From assembly GCA_040326155.1 (NCBI GenBank), contig JBEQLE010000052.1, forward strand, positions 1 through 30,441: DNA of 30,441 nucleotides, read 5' to 3'. Origin of the DNA: Leptospirales bacterium. GTDB taxonomy: Bacteria; Spirochaetota; Leptospiria; Turneriellales; JAOUFE01. The position numbers were made by a program, and so were the translations under genes. Of this stretch, positions 1 through 13,272 are shown one piece after another. Under the pieces are notes generated by a model. It ran no database searches and was not told the DNA's origin. It saw only the letters and a program-made list of their open reading frames with translations. Position 1 is the stretch's first letter. Each line of letters begins with the position of its first letter.

Positions 1-231
1 GTGAGTATTTGCGACCAATACTTGCTTCACTTTATTTTGAATCAAATCAGTAAAAGCAAAAGTATTGGTGGAAGCTTCAACGACCACATAAGTTTCATGA
101 TCCAATAGGCTATAAAATCTTTCCAGATCTTCAGCAACAAGTTCAAAACGATACCTTTGTTTATTTCCTTCCTCATCCAAGAAGCAAATATTAAACCTGT
201 TCGAATGCAGGTCAATTCCGATAAATCTCAT
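1..231 (-). CDS. IS110-family transposase/recombinase, N-terminal 77 aa (runs off window)
   Basis: Manual minus-strand translation from ATG at 231: MRFIGIDLHSNRFNICFLDEEGNKQRYRFELVAEDLERFYSLLDHETYVVVEASTNTFAFTDLIQNKVKQVLVANTH. GIDLH (D7), VVEAS (E52) and VAN motifs fit the RuvC-like DEDD domain of IS110 enzymes. Strong AAGGAGG RBS upstream. Not in the ORF track. Confidence 0.92.
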   Translation of the reverse strand, partial: MRFIGIDLHSNRFNICFLDEEGNKQRYRFELVAEDLERFYSLLDHETYVVVEASTNTFAFTDLIQNKVKQVLVANTH

Positions 232-265
232 ATGTTCCTCCTTGATTTTTTAGATACATTTCATT

Positions 266-428
266 TTCATACGTCTATACGGGTATCGCCCGCCGACCAA
301 GGTCGGCGGGTGTCCCAAGAGTTTAATACGAACAGGCCGCTAATCGTTATTACGGGCTTATAATATCCCAGAGTCTGTGCAGCCTGATACTCTATGGTCA
401 GAGTATATTTGTCCTGAAACGTATCAAG
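266..428 (-). ncRNA. Putative IS110 bridge/seek RNA
   Basis: Minus strand folds into a 5' hairpin (387-406), loop domain A (stem 379-386/333-340, inner GGG/CCC) and loop domain B (stem 327-332/266-271, inner GC hairpin 281-316). Both domains share the scaffold ACTCT(T)GGGA...CCCGTAnnnACG. Confidence 0.7.
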
Positions 429-431
429 GAC

Positions 432-437
432 ATCATA
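432..437 (-). promoter_or_regulatory. Orphan -10 box (TATGAT) at IS left end
   Basis: TATGAT on the minus strand a few nt inside the predicted end, with no good -35 at 17-nt spacing (TTCGGC). Fits IS110 promoters that are completed at the circle junction. Confidence 0.5.
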
Positions 438-526
438 AAATCGTTATGTGAAGTGCCGAATTAGTAAAAGTCGATTATTCTGTTAGCAATGAAAATACAA
501 TCATTCAGTCCATCATGCAATAAAAG

Positions 527-1114
527 TCAAATTTCTTTGGGATAAAAATAACCTTTAATACACTCAGTATTTCTAACACAGATTTGTATATGATTTTTAT
601 CTCGGAATCCAGCATTAAGGTAAATTTCCTCTCCCTCAGTAAAAACTGATCTTACTGTGTCATATTCTTTAAGGCCACTTTCTAGGCGCATAGTATGTAA
701 ATTCTGTATTACTGCACAATCAAGATTTCTTTGTAATGGGATTTGATCAAGATGCAAAGGATCGGTGTTTTGCGGAAGTTCCGTTCCAAACTTATTATGT
801 ATATTAGCTAGGAAGTTATAAGATGCTTTTAGCTCGTCAACATACGACCTTTCCAAAAGGTTTAAACAAAAACCTAGATCGATTATTGCACCAATGACAC
901 CAATTTTCTTTTTTATTGTTTTACGTTTGAAATTTTCTTCAGCAAACTCTTTGGCTCTCAATGGATCATTTTCCCAAAAATAGATCCCGTTCCCAAGCCA
1001 GTCATATGCGTTTTCGCTGGGATTTAAATTTGATTTTTTATCAATAATATGTTTAACTGTGGTAATGTCAGTGCCGTGGTATCCTAGCACTAAAGATGGC
1101 TGTACAGTATTCAA
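527..1114 (-). CDS. Hypothetical protein, putative ADP-ribosyltransferase-fold toxin
   Basis: 195 aa with LGYHGT and DWLGNGIYFWE motifs resembling the H-Y-type ART/PARP-like catalytic core. Lies 7 nt downstream of a small partner gene. Confidence 0.6.
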   Translation of the reverse strand: MNTVQPSLVLGYHGTDITTVKHIIDKKSNLNPSENAYDWLGNGIYFWENDPLRAKEFAEENFKRKTIKKKIGVIGAIIDLGFCLNLLERSYVDELKASYNFLANIHNKFGTELPQNTDPLHLDQIPLQRNLDCAVIQNLHTMRLESGLKEYDTVRSVFTEGEEIYLNAGFRDKNHIQICVRNTECIKGYFYPKEI

Positions 1115-1121
1115 GATGATA

Positions 1122-1286
1122 TTACTTAAACTGCTTCTTCAGCGCACCATTTTTTGTATACATTCCAGTTTGATATAGAATGGCATTCGCATCTTGCTGT
1201 GTCATGGCTTTTTTCTGTTTGTCTGCATATGAAGCCAGCAAATCTATTTCTTTTTGTTTTTCCTTTTTATCTGATACTAACATCAT
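1122..1286 (-). CDS. Small 54-aa protein, putative antitoxin/partner
   Basis: ATG at 1286 preceded by GAGG RBS, a better start than 1382. Sequence MMLVSDKKEKQKEIDLLASYADKQKKAMTQQDANAILYQTGMYTKNGALKKQFK. Confidence 0.6.
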   Translation of the reverse strand: MMLVSDKKEKQKEIDLLASYADKQKKAMTQQDANAILYQTGMYTKNGALKKQFK

Positions 1287-1305
1287 TTCCTCTTCTGCTT
1301 CCAGT

Positions 1306-1343
1306 ATTATACTATGAAATCTTGCAATTGACCAAATTGTCAA
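1306..1343 (-). promoter_or_regulatory. Cassette-internal promoter with palindromic operator
   Basis: Perfect TATAAT (1311-1306) and a TTGAC-N6-GTCAA palindrome (1328-1343) over the -35 region. Confidence 0.5.
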
Positions 1344-1596
1344 CCACATTTTTGAATGTTTAACAAGATAAACTGCTCTCAAAAAAAGTATGGTATTACA
1401 TATTTTTTTTGAGAGTTGATGATTTATCAGGTAAATACTTAGAGAAAGTTATCTATTCGGCATTTCGCCTAACACTTCTTGTGCCAATTACCAAAAACCA
1501 CTGCATGTTTGCATAAACAAACCGCTAGATTCCATGAATTTGTATCCTTACTCTCCCCATTGAAAATTCAATATACCCAACTAATTTTCATATGGA

Positions 1597-1620
1597 GTAG
1601 GGCGGTCGCATTCCGAACTG
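1597..1620 (+). repeat. REP-like dispersed repeat (GTAGGGCGGTCGCATTCCGAAC)
   Basis: 1603-1619 is an exact 17-nt reverse complement of 13512-13528, and the repeat starts with a GTAG tetranucleotide. Confidence 0.55.
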
Positions 1621-1741
1621 TTTTCAGATAGAATAATATACCTTTACGCTTCGAAAATACCCCTCTCGTGGTCGGCCTGATTTTTCTTTTTCTTGTCGTC
1701 TGGTCTCAAGAAGGGGAAACTCCCGCAAGGTCGTTCGTTAA

Positions 1742-2188
1742 ATGGATATTGCAAAAAATAAAAAAGCGTATTTTCAGTATGAAATACTGGAGGAAGTGGA
1801 AGCTGGTATTGTCCTTGTGGGTAGTGAGGTGAAATCTCTGCGTTTAAAAAAAATCTCTTTGACGGAGTCTTACGCGGTATTCAAGCGCAATGAACTTTAT
1901 CTGTTGAATGCCAGAATTGAACCGTATACAAACAGTACCACATTTAACCATGACCCGGTGGCTTCTCGAAAGTTATTACTAAAGAAGAAAGAGCTTATGA
2001 GGCTCAAAGGAAAGCTGGCCGAAAAAGGGTGGGTTCTGGTGCCTTTGAAAATGTACTTTAAATATAATCGGTATGCAAAGGTCTTGCTGGGGCTCGGCAA
2101 GGGTAAGAAAATGTATGACAAAAGGGCTGTTATAAAAGAACGTGATCTAAAACGCGAAGCTTTAAGAGAATTAAAAGATTATAAGTAA
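1742..2188 (+). CDS. smpB: SsrA-binding protein SmpB
   Basis: NKKA..Y, EAGIVLVGSEVKSLR, RKLLL and GKGKKMYDKR motifs. Confidence 0.98.
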   Translation: MDIAKNKKAYFQYEILEEVEAGIVLVGSEVKSLRLKKISLTESYAVFKRNELYLLNARIEPYTNSTTFNHDPVASRKLLLKKKELMRLKGKLAEKGWVLVPLKMYFKYNRYAKVLLGLGKGKKMYDKRAVIKERDLKREALRELKDYK

Positions 2189-2256
2189 TTGCTGCGATTA
2201 TAGGACTCTGCGAGCGGAGCGGGGACTTTGTTTACCGGTTCGGTGCAATTTTTACT

Positions 2257-2274
2257 GGTGGGGAATTTCCGACC
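2257..2274 (+). repeat. Dispersed repeat GGTGGGGAATTTCCGACC
   Basis: 17/18 match to the reverse complement of 27766-27783 and similar to 27817-27834. Confidence 0.55.
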
Positions 2275-2432
2275 TAAAAAAGTCTAACAAAACTTCTCAA
2301 CTCCATTTCTCACATCTAATTTTTGGTCTAATTTCTAGAATAGCAGCGAAACCTGGTATTAAAGGTGGGTAATTTCTCATCAGCATTCACCAAATTGACT
2401 TTAATATTTCAGGTTATGGCCGACAATGAATT

Positions 2433-3230
2433 ATGGTACGCTCACTCTGGACATCCGCATCGGGAATGGTTTCCCAACAGTTTCAAATTGATACGATAGC
2501 GAACAACCTTGCTAACGTTAATACGACCGGTTTTAAGAAAAGTCGAGTCGATTTCGAAGATCTTGTATATCAACATCAGGTCTTGGCGGGAACACCTTCC
2601 ACGGCTGTTTCTGAAATTCCTACCGGGGTGAACGTAGGTCATGGTGTGCGTCCAGCGGCGACGCAGAAAATTTTCAGTACAGGGTCGCTTCAGGGTACTA
2701 CGAATAAATTTGACCTGGCAATTACCAACGCAGTTGGCTTTTTTAAAGTGAGAATGCCGGATGGTTCGTTTGGTTATACCCGAGATGGTTCTTTTAAACT
2801 CGATGGTAACCGGCAAGTCGTTACCAGTAACGGTTACCTGTTTGAGCCACAGATTATTTTACCAGATGGGGCTATAAAAGAAAGTTTCAATGTGACTGAA
2901 AATGGTGAAGTTTTTGTAAATATTGGGGCAGACCAGAATGCTACTTTAATTGGACAAATAGAAACGTATCGGTTTGTGAATCCCGCTGGTTTAAAACCCA
3001 TTGGAAAAAATCTGTTTCATGAGTCCGCTGCTTCGGGACCGGAAATGGCAGGTACTCCAGGGTTAGATGGTTATGGTTCGCTTATGCAGAGTTTTCTTGA
3101 AATGAGCAATGTGAACCTGGCCGAAGAGATGGTAAACATGATTGTCGCTCAAAGAGCTTATGAGTCGAATTCAAAAGCGATACAGACTTCCGATTCGATG
3201 CTGGCGACTGCTATACAACTTAAAAGGTAA
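2433..3230 (+). CDS. flgG: Flagellar basal-body distal rod protein FlgG
   Basis: ANNLANVNTTGFK, YTRDGSF and LEMSNVNLAEEMVNMIVAQRAYE motifs; 265 aa. Confidence 0.97.
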   Translation: MVRSLWTSASGMVSQQFQIDTIANNLANVNTTGFKKSRVDFEDLVYQHQVLAGTPSTAVSEIPTGVNVGHGVRPAATQKIFSTGSLQGTTNKFDLAITNAVGFFKVRMPDGSFGYTRDGSFKLDGNRQVVTSNGYLFEPQIILPDGAIKESFNVTENGEVFVNIGADQNATLIGQIETYRFVNPAGLKPIGKNLFHESAASGPEMAGTPGLDGYGSLMQSFLEMSNVNLAEEMVNMIVAQRAYESNSKAIQTSDSMLATAIQLKR

Positions 3231-4215: not shown

Positions 4216-4851
4216 ATGAAAAAGAAAATACTTATATTTGCACTTATTATTTCAGGCGAAGCGATTTTCGCCCAGGTTTCTTTGTACAATGGAGCCGACC
4301 CTTACCGTAAGCTGTATCAAAATGGAGATTTAGTTAAGGTTTCTATTTCGGAACTTCTTACCATTGAAGTGAAGAATGATTGGTCTGACACAACCGATAT
4401 GAAATTAAAACTTGTACCGGATCAAAAATATTTTGACTTTTTACAAGGCGCGGAGCAATCGCGCACAAGCGATAAAAAACAAAAAATTCGTAATACCATT
4501 AAAGAGAAATTTGAACTTAATATATTGGCCAGGGTACAAAGGCTCAACAACGATCTTCTGTCTGTGAGTGCGCAAAAAGATGTGACTCTGGATGGTCGCG
4601 TATCTATTATTCGAATTACGGGTATTACTCATCCCCGGTTTATTAAAGACTCGGTGGTTATGTCTGAGAATATTGCCCAGTTGGCAATTTTAATTACGGT
4701 AAGGCCTCCGGTTATTCGTTCCAATACCGTGACCACACTGGAAGCGGGTGAAACGGAAAACGAACCACCTTCGTTATCAAAAGCTCAGAAAGATCAAATA
4801 TTGTTGAATCATATACGAGAAATACTGGGCGCACTGGAACAACAAAATTAA
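4216..4851 (+). CDS. flgH: Flagellar L-ring protein FlgH-like
   Basis: GDLVKVSISE, ITGIT.P..I and V.SENIAQL motifs typical of FlgH; position before flgI. Confidence 0.75.
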   Translation: MKKKILIFALIISGEAIFAQVSLYNGADPYRKLYQNGDLVKVSISELLTIEVKNDWSDTTDMKLKLVPDQKYFDFLQGAEQSRTSDKKQKIRNTIKEKFELNILARVQRLNNDLLSVSAQKDVTLDGRVSIIRITGITHPRFIKDSVVMSENIAQLAILITVRPPVIRSNTVTTLEAGETENEPPSLSKAQKDQILLNHIREILGALEQQN

Positions 4852-13074: not shown

Positions 13075-13272
13075 TTTTGTAAGGAAGGCAGGAAGGTAGA
13101 CAGGAAGGGCAGGAAAAGAAATAGATAAAGATAAATAGACAGGATTAACAGGATTGACATGTAAGAAATTAATGGAAAACTAAATTTCGAGATGTCATTT
13201 ATTCATAAAATTCTTTATAAATTGGCAAAAAATCATTTTTTAAAACCGGTCAATCCTGCCTTCCTTATAAAA
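13075..13272. repeat. MITE-like element with ~19-bp terminal inverted repeats
   Basis: TTTTGTAAGGAAGGCAGGA (13075-13093) vs TCCTGCCTTCCTTATAAAA (13254-13272), 18/19 match; related copy at 26691-26910. Confidence 0.65.

Follow-up and report, generated by a model that had tools for sequence, protein, structure and literature searches.

A predicted two-loop guide RNA upstream of an IS110-family recombinase gene in a Leptospirales bacterium, with guide sides opposite to those of IS621

The stretch of DNA analysed here, called the window below, comprises 30,441 nucleotides from a Leptospirales bacterium (assembly GCA_040326155.1, contig JBEQLE010000052.1, positions 1 to 30,441 of the forward strand). 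Its sequence indicates that window 441..232, read on the minus strand, is very probably the left end of an insertion sequence of the IS110 family, encoding a bridge (seek) RNA of about 135–150 nt directly upstream of the recombinase gene. The window starts at base 1 of the contig (C119), and the contig start cuts the recombinase gene, of which the first 77 codons are present (1..231, minus strand, with the ATG at 231..229 according to the list of open reading frames). The predicted RNA carries two internal loops, one of which matches both flanks of the insertion site and the other both ends of the element itself, and the sides on which these matches lie are opposite to those stated for IS621. 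The same arrangement recurs, with covarying stems and with loop patches that follow the flanks of each element, in a clade of related loci.

The minimum-energy structure of the minus strand from 460 to 232 (229 nt, −67.2 kcal/mol, z = −3.96, none of 200 shuffles as stable) consists of exactly two stem/internal-loop/stem domains and a 5' hairpin. Two such tandem domains had been described upstream of the ATG in a first-pass annotation of this DNA; the sequence is as described there and the fold returns both. The 5' hairpin precedes the two loops (387..406, minus strand), and hairpins are found at the same place in the aligned relatives. Domain A (333..386, minus strand), assigned as the target-binding loop (TBL) because its loops match the flanks of the element, has an outer stem made of CAGGCUGC (386..379) and GCGGCCUG (340..333), a 5' loop ACAGACUCU (378..370), an inner GGG/CCC stem (369..367 with 356..354) and a 3' loop GUAAUAACGAUUA (353..341). 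Domain B (266..332, minus strand), assigned as the donor-binding loop (DBL) because its loops match the element's own ends, is closed by UUCGUA (332..327) paired with UAUGAA (271..266) and has a 5' loop UUAAACUCUU (326..317), a 3' loop GUAUAGACG (280..272) and an inner GGG/CCC stem (316..314 with 283..281) under a G+C hairpin cap. The identity of a 9-mer of loop A with the sequence across the junction of target and element, from which the guide role had initially been proposed, is exact: ATAACGATT is found at 350..342 and at 447..439. This 9-mer occurs three times in the window against 0.52 expected, a count that 3 of 100 shuffles reach, and the observation in this single copy is therefore suggestive and not conclusive.

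The ends of the element are fixed by independent lines of evidence. The left boundary is marked by a second copy in the same genome, C161:13953-14029, which is identical to window 440..364 (77 bases) and different beyond 440, in agreement with the element end predicted earlier. A search of the genome with the sequence predicted from the loops for the right end led to a single place, C114:291-303. The beginning of that contig (C114:1-263) is an open frame for the C-terminal 86 codons of a recombinase resembling the full-length relatives, and the stop codon is followed by 32 nt ending ...CCCTTGACGTTCTCATAGA, then CG, then AGTCTGTAGAATAAG... The right end thus closes ...CTCATAGA before CG, and the distal flank reads CG-AGTCTGT; the first-pass annotation had anticipated both a right end ...ATAG(ACG) and CTGT shortly after the core. 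Uninterrupted copies of the target sequence, CGCATAACGAGAGTGTAG on C83 and CGCCTAACAAGTCTGTAG on C81, align without a gap to CACATAA + CG + AGTCTGTAG, and for this reason C119 and C114 are taken to flank one insertion.

The core dinucleotide CG (442..443, minus strand) stands at both junctions, CACATAA-CG-ATTT on the left and CATAGA-CG-AGTC on the right, once per junction of the C119/C114 insertion. A core had been proposed around ACG, which was right in substance, the core being CG here and TG, AG or GG in some relatives. Another candidate, GA, read as a direct repeat at both junctions in two elements, was ruled out by an alignment of 23 sequences together with the uninterrupted target copies. 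The first four element bases, ATTT (438..441, minus strand), are the variable 'right donor' (RD) positions, read by the handshake positions of the TBL and by the 5' side of the DBL. The left target flank (444..460, minus strand), of which the guide matches ATAA (447..444), forms the left edge of a repeat copy of about 105–120 nt. With about 210 nt on the left (441..232) and 32 nt after the stop codon on the right, the element has a long left end and a short right one. The insertion accounts for contig breaks in the assembly, and the ends of the element can be annotated to the base.

The target repeat is present in at least five copies in the genome (window 444-460 with C114:296-400; C83:~4514-4636; C58:~1071-1200; C81:~13077-13184; C21:347-449). 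It has 16-bp inverted termini (CTGTAGAATAAGTAAA...TTTACTTATTCTACAG) and, judged by this layout, looks like a miniature inverted-repeat element. The site occupied by the C119/C114 copy of the insertion sequence, at the margin of this small repeat, is a perfect match. A DNA search for the element gave no match outside the source genome among one genome of the genus and 34 genomes of the order. Among the sequencing runs listed for this stretch none is an RNA run, and four runs yielded just two short metagenome contigs that overlap the region: one from run X3 covers window 355-454, that is, the left end with 11 nt of flank, and diverges at 454, and one from run X1 covers window 446-693, flank only. 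The contigs of these two runs contain no joints, and they are weak evidence that the element or the target repeat is present elsewhere.

In the copy studied here all four guide segments find their counterparts. The 3' side of the TBL reads AUAA-CG-AUU and equals four nucleotides of left flank, the core and the first three nucleotides of the element; read as its reverse complement, the 5' side, ACAGACUC, gives the G-AGTCTGT of the right junction on C114. The 3' loop of the DBL reproduces the right-end tip AUAGA followed by the core CG, and its 5' loop (326..317) contains a 4-mer complementary to the first four nucleotides of the element. The guide match of this copy to its own site is perfect, at 9/9 and 8/8 positions. 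A paralogue in the same genome, C104:24696..23308, is a complete element of 1,389 bp with a recombinase of 371 amino acids (49% identical over the N-terminus), and its RNA has the common scaffold with different patches. There the 3' side of the TBL, CCUU-CG-AUU, equals the left junction CCTT-CG-ATT, the 5' side, GCGAAACCC, corresponds in reverse complement to G-GGTTTCGC of the right junction, and the 3' side of the DBL, AAUAGA-CG, agrees with the tip CATAGA-CG in five of six tip bases and in the core. This paralogue (within C104:23306-24698) occupies an unrelated target, GGGCCTT-CG-GGTTTCGC. Another left end of the C104 type lies at C67:1-60, on a contig of 736 nt, beside the similar flank GGGCTTT-CG.

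The fragment encoded in the window scores 28.1 bits against NF033542 and 16.5 bits against PF01548, both below cut-off because the fragment is incomplete; a ribosome-binding site, AAGGAGG (237..243, minus strand), lies 5 nt before its ATG, and GGAGG-like sites are aligned with it in relatives. Full-length relatives, 47–64% identical to this N-terminal fragment, contain PF01548 (DEDD RuvC-like) and PF02371 (Tnp), and the C104 paralogue scores 174.4 bits against NF033542, 'IS110 family RNA-guided transposase' (cut-off 140). A phmmer search of the paralogue against the sequences of the PDB gave no match at E ≤ 0.01. A profile of the family scores IS621 at 39.5 bits (in two pieces), ISCro4 at 35.9 and IS4321 at 32.9 (in one alignment, profile positions 1-324), and the protein of the clade is thus about equally remote from the two reference types, IS621 and IS4321. 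A tblastn search of plasmids returned 613 records, all below 60% identity; the 40 matches listed have 19–43% identity and are labelled at most 'IS110 family transposase' or 'transposase', and with such low identities and generic labels they are of no use for sub-classification.

Other genes or gene fragments of the IS110 family in the source genome are located at C100:34628-35737, C161:704-1162 and C97:6016-6264, and none of them matches the RNA model described below. The gene on C100 encodes 369 amino acids with a different start (HLGLDVHK) and may carry another type of guide RNA. The motif CATCATAGA on C100 was considered as a right end and rejected, as it lies inside the gene.

Further support for the guide role comes from the family. 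The alignment of relatives was scanned against genome and metagenome collections, with 80 loci taken from each. In a MAFFT alignment of 16 left ends, RNAalifold predicted 21 base pairs, 13 of them with compensatory changes; 93.1% of the cells of the stems are paired against 83.1% in shuffles, none of 500 shuffles reaches that value, and only 28–48% of cells pair when the partners are slid by 1–3 columns. A covariance model built from the left-end alignment (R1) matches 48 of 71 sources at E ≤ 0.01, in every case upstream of the recombinase gene and on the same strand. The first-pass annotation had proposed a model of homologous left ends as a check; the stems covary. The matched loci extend to distant ones with listed tblastn identities down to 30–33% (L028, L032, L107-L112), and no match was obtained among the loci listed below 30% identity or at three other IS110-family loci of the source genome that were searched (L003, L004, L006). 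About 40 loci make up the clade; the metagenome-assembled genomes that carry them are labelled Spirochaetia, Brevinematales, Ignavibacteriaceae, Fibrobacteres and others.

For the comparison of loops with flanks, the junctions were located independently of the variable guide positions. Left junctions were recognised by a TAT[GC]A motif with the core of the donor loop 4 nt before it, and right junctions by ATAG[AC] followed by the donor-loop core, with TTGA within the preceding 22 nt. The 48 model matches gave 44 with a 3' side of the TBL; after six without the left motif, one with N in the flank and the decayed L027 had been dropped, and L112 had been reparsed by hand, the left set held 36 loci, 34 of them non-redundant. 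The right set, with both a right junction and a 5' side of the TBL, held 33 loci, 31 of them non-redundant. All counts were made over the non-redundant loci.

The 3' side of the TBL agrees with positions −4 to −1 of the left flank at 118 of 136 positions (shuffle mean 53.4), and the reverse complement of its 5' side agrees with positions +1 to +7 of the right flank (RT) at 160 of 217 (shuffle mean 68.9); none of 10,000 shuffles reaches either count. The final C of the 5' side stands opposite the invariant G of the core. The two positions that follow the core on the 3' side, which correspond to the handshake positions of IS621, match RD1-2 at 60 of 68 positions, a count that none of 10,000 shuffles reaches (shuffle mean 44.0); at the third position agreement is not above chance (6 of 34, shuffle mean 6.0). 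In the donor loop, the 4-mer located 3 nt before the inner stem on the 5' side agrees with the reverse complement of RD1-4 at 78 of 112 positions, against a shuffle mean of 50.7, and none of 2000 shuffles does as well. The 3' side of the DBL reads AUAGA plus core nearly everywhere among the 48 model matches, and the right ends read ...CATAGA plus core. Most loci have CG as their core, L070 and L100 have TG, L109-L112 have AG, and L028, L032, L107 and L108 have GG; in 43 of 44 RNAs (with L112 corrected) the two loops share an identical core, which changes together with the junction. Loop A, whose variable patches follow each element's own flanks, thus behaves as the target loop, and loop B, with its nearly invariant 3' side equal to the conserved right-end tip and core, as the donor loop, which is how the first-pass annotation had named them. 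Its observation that the guide identical to the top strand lies on the 3' side, the reverse of IS621, holds across the clade, as the two flank counts show. The family-wide covariation of stems, flanks and element ends implies that the loop pattern is not a coincidence.

Several copies in the clade are irregular. In L090 (~1900-2000) two copies of the right-end tip (...TTGACGTTCTCATAGACG) stand in tandem, separated by 5 nt, and resemble a leftover second right end or the remnant of a junction. The donor loop of the L018 RNA (1226-1395) contains about 45 inserted nucleotides, the RNA of L027 (1304-1442) has a scrambled 3' side of the TBL, and those of L020 (1318-1456) and L025 (1321-1439) are without a recognisable target loop. 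These four copies are probably relics.

Sub-terminal inverted repeats provide a further mark of the ends. On the left the repeat reads TATGATG (431..437, minus strand), and the right end carries TCTCATA, complementary to it at 5 of 7 positions in this copy. In 30 loci the right xxTCATA and the left TATGAxx are complementary at 5–7 of 7 positions, with paired changes such as CATCATA with TATGATG and ACTCATA with TATGAGT. The repeat is 7 bp long here and 9 bp in the C104 paralogue. With one copy of the core counted on the left, the terminal extensions are 7 bp and 3 bp if the repeat is read ATGAxx/xxTCAT, and 6 bp and 2 bp if the T/A pair is included. TATGAT (437..432) would serve as the −10 element of a promoter assembled at the junction of an excised circle, predicted for this element as TTGACG-16 nt-TATGAT; the first-pass annotation had expected a TTGAC-like −35 about 17 nt from TATGAT, and a 17-nt spacer is found in most relatives. 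The −35 TTGAC occurs at 24 of 30 loci, the −10 TATGAT at 23 of 30 and a spacer of 16–17 nt at 23 of 30, and a remote subgroup with TATGAG has spacers of 19–21 nt. In the integrated state the RNA is preceded only by a weak, flank-borne match, TCGGCA-16 nt-TATGAT (9/12).

These observations can be joined into one proposed mechanism. The predicted RNA has the order 5' hairpin, target-binding loop, donor-binding loop, and the 5' strand of each loop is complementary to the top strand on the right of the 2-nt core: in the TBL to the G of the core and 7–8 nt of right flank, and in the DBL to the first 4 nt of the element. The 3' strand of each loop is identical to the top strand on the left side of the core and includes the core as well, covering 4–5 nt of left flank and CG in the TBL, and AUAGA of the right-end tip and CG in the DBL. 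The two positions after the core on the 3' side of the TBL match the first two bases of the element and not the target, and by their position and logic they would act as a 'handshake guide'. By analogy with IS621 and IS1111-type elements, the element would excise as a circle whose junction creates the promoter TTGACG-16 nt-TATGAT, this promoter would drive both the RNA and the recombinase, and a tetramer of the recombinase would hold both loops, pair target with donor and exchange strands at the core.

Several observations weigh against this reading or limit it. The middle of the element, about 650 nt between window base 1 and C114 base 1 as judged from the 1,389-bp paralogue on C104, is found in no contig of at least 500 nt. 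The second left-end junction, on C161 (13930-14029), keeps ATAA and has AT in place of the CG core and T in place of the first element base A; the contig ends after the stretch matching window 440..364, and the junction fits neither a CG nor a GA core. An insertion off target or at a half-matched site may account for it, as may divergence of the second copy. Rfam 15 yields no relevant match at E ≤ 10 in window 1-2500, only chance matches to microRNA and snoRNA models elsewhere. The similarity of the protein to the IS621 recombinase is remote (39.5 bits), and carrying over the structural mechanism of IS621 is therefore a matter of inference. In the donor loop the handshake signal is weak at position 1 (19 of 31, shuffle mean 14.3, reached by 131 of 10,000 shuffles) and not above chance at position 2 (9 of 31, shuffle mean 6.2, reached by 1243 of 10,000). 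The right-flank guide matches poorly in some loci, at 2/7 in L010, L011 and L022 and at 3/7 in L014, L016 and L018. Four identical copies on one chromosome record (L014-L017) all have xTAA-CG on the left and match the right flank at only 3–5 of 7 positions, which suggests that the left half and the core dominate the choice of site or that the right half is tolerant.

Among the alternatives, the one that survives best leaves the mechanism as proposed and changes the classification: the clade would be a branch of the IS1111 family whose non-coding region has moved upstream. We give this a substantial chance, short of an even one. It would explain why the complement of the top strand comes first in each loop and why sub-terminal inverted repeats are present, and if the repeat is read TCTCAT/ATGAGA the left extension comes to 7 bp and the right one to 3 bp. 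The right-end tip ...CATAGA also resembles that of IS4321 on plasmid R751, the IS1111 reference, which has the tip ...CCATAGA, an 11-bp repeat and extensions of 7 bp and 3 bp, and rare members of the IS1111 family, e.g., ISMtsp17, are described with an upstream non-coding region (Siddiquee 2024, PMC11187229). Against it, the family profile scores IS4321 no better than IS621 (32.9 and 39.5 bits), the repeats are 7–9 bp and not 11–13 bp, and both loops of the clade are simple internal loops, whereas Durrant 2024 (PMC11208160) reports multi-loop donor sites in many IS1111 RNAs.

It is unlikely that a genuine RNA gene stands here in a relic that no longer works, its recombinase gene broken or its copies diverged. 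The absent middle of the element and the aberrant junction on C161 would fit such a relic, as would the decayed loops of the relatives L020, L025 and L027. However, the guides of this copy match their own site perfectly, the N- and C-terminal parts of the gene are open frames resembling full-length relatives, and a gap of this kind is the usual outcome of assembling repeated elements.

An ordinary bridge RNA of the IS621 type, in which the swap of sides is an artefact of a misplaced element end or orientation, shares with our data the RNA upstream of the gene, the 5' hairpin and the order of TBL before DBL, but it can hardly be correct. The ends are fixed independently by the second copy, the uninterrupted target paralogues and the sub-terminal repeats in 30 loci, and once the ends are so placed, the counts given above equate the 3' side with the left flank and make the 5' side the complement of the right flank, the opposite of the sides stated for IS621 by Durrant 2024 (PMC11208160); transcription from the opposite strand is excluded by the structure and by the recombinase gene. 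The RNA could also be read as a structured leader at the 5' end of the recombinase mRNA, or as an attenuator, with no guide role and with a 9-mer due to chance or to target-site duplication. The mild improbability of the 9-mer within the window would suit this reading. It is nevertheless scarcely credible, as the loop patches vary with each element's flanks on both sides while the stems covary, and a duplication leaves unexplained both the reverse-complement match to the other flank and the agreement between loop B and the distal end of the element.

One feature elsewhere in the window is an A+T-rich palindrome at 1358-1436 with chance-level matches to microRNA models (E 2.8–4.8). It overlaps the 5' end of a minus-strand open reading frame (1122..1382), lies about 300 nt upstream of a plus-strand open reading frame that starts at 1742, and may be a regulatory or terminator-like hairpin.

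The guide RNA described here, taken again as that of an RNA-guided element with mirrored sides, can be set beside the two kinds of elements already reported. Its protein domains, covarying RNA and matches to both flanks and to its own ends place the clade, as far as sequence can tell, within the RNA-guided IS110-family insertion sequences in the broad sense. No guides other than bridge and seek RNAs are known to specify both recombination partners, and these RNAs are under development as genome-writing tools. The clade shares with IS621 the RNA in the left end upstream of the gene, the order of 5' hairpin, target loop and donor loop, the simple internal loops, the 2-nt core common to target and donor, the target in a genomic repeat and the DEDD/RuvC-plus-Tnp recombinase. 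As in IS621, the length read by one loop strand is about 9 nt with the core counted in, and on the 3' strand the core is followed by two handshake positions. In IS621 these two positions are described as following the core-pairing part of the 3' side and pairing with the non-cognate DNA (Hiraizumi 2024, PMC11208158); the 3' side of the clade has the same 5'-to-3' order of flank, core and handshake but is identical to the top strand, not complementary to it.

The differences from IS621 thus concern polarity and ends. In the clade, pairing with the top strand falls to the 5' strand and lies right of the core, the 3' strand pairs with the bottom strand on the left side, and Durrant 2024 (PMC11208160) assigns the guide sides of IS621 the other way round. 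The core is CG, or xG across the clade, unlike that of IS621, which is compared here by the statements of the papers only. The sub-terminal repeats are 7–9 bp long, whereas a repeat of 2–3 bp is reported to flank the donor in the IS621-like group (PMC11208160). The RNA–DNA arrangement nevertheless becomes that of IS621 after a 180-degree turn of both DNA sites, and we infer that the geometry of the complex can be the same. Since this turn maps one layout onto the other, the RNA and recombinase genes would be inverted relative to the polarity of the recombination sites.

With the seekRNAs of IS1111-type elements (ISEc11, ISPa11, ISKpn4, ISPst6) the clade shares the position of the top-strand complement 5' of the bottom-strand match, together with sub-terminal inverted repeats, short asymmetric terminal extensions and a circle-junction promoter, the last being predicted in the clade (PMC11187229). 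Siddiquee 2024 describes for IS1111 elements sub-terminal repeats of 11–13 bp, extensions of 7 bp and 3 bp and, with few exceptions, a non-coding region downstream of the gene, with seekRNAs of 70–100 nt; unlike these, the clade has its RNA upstream, repeats of 7–9 bp and two internal loops of the IS621 kind. The exception ISMtsp17, known to us from a one-sentence description, combines IS1111 features with an upstream non-coding region as the clade does. ISEc21, of the IS110 type, is described in the same paper as having an upstream seekRNA, likewise in the position found in the clade, needed for circle formation and insertion, but its top-strand match lies 3' of its bottom-strand match, the opposite of the clade.

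The guide order of IS1111 and the upstream RNA together mean that the clade combines an IS110-like placement with IS1111-like polarity and ends. The suggestion of the first-pass annotation that this may be a distinct programmable subtype stands only in part: the order as such had already been reported for IS1111-type seekRNAs (PMC11187229), and it is its combination with the upstream position that is unusual. The mechanism has been known since 2024; the clade is unnamed and joins features that the two founding papers treat as alternatives. Literature searches brought up no account of a guide RNA that lies upstream and has the IS1111 order; the texts covered include the 2026 review PMC13604230 and the text of the 2026 survey preprint 10.64898/2026.10.21.760802, which reports 86 bridge-RNA covariance models, 'many' of them deviating from IS621; the figures and supplements of that preprint and of Durrant 2024 may cover the clade.

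With its IS1111-like ends and polarity and its upstream two-loop RNA, the clade might, rather tentatively, be regarded as a third architectural class of RNA-guided IS110-family elements or as a surviving intermediate in the split between IS1111 and IS110. If so, the guide RNA gene would have moved between the element ends before the polarity of the sites flipped, site polarity and gene orientation would be independent modules, and the strand exchanged first, relative to transcription, would be the opposite of that in IS621. The clade also offers compact recombinases (352–387 amino acids) together with a flexible xG core and an RNA about 135 nt long, its members form a natural 'reprogramming' series for the guide rules, including the handshake positions, and the clade bears on the divergence of IS110 and IS1111. 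Set against IS621, it indicates that a mirror image of the guide layout, relative to the genes, is compatible with an unchanged RNA scaffold.

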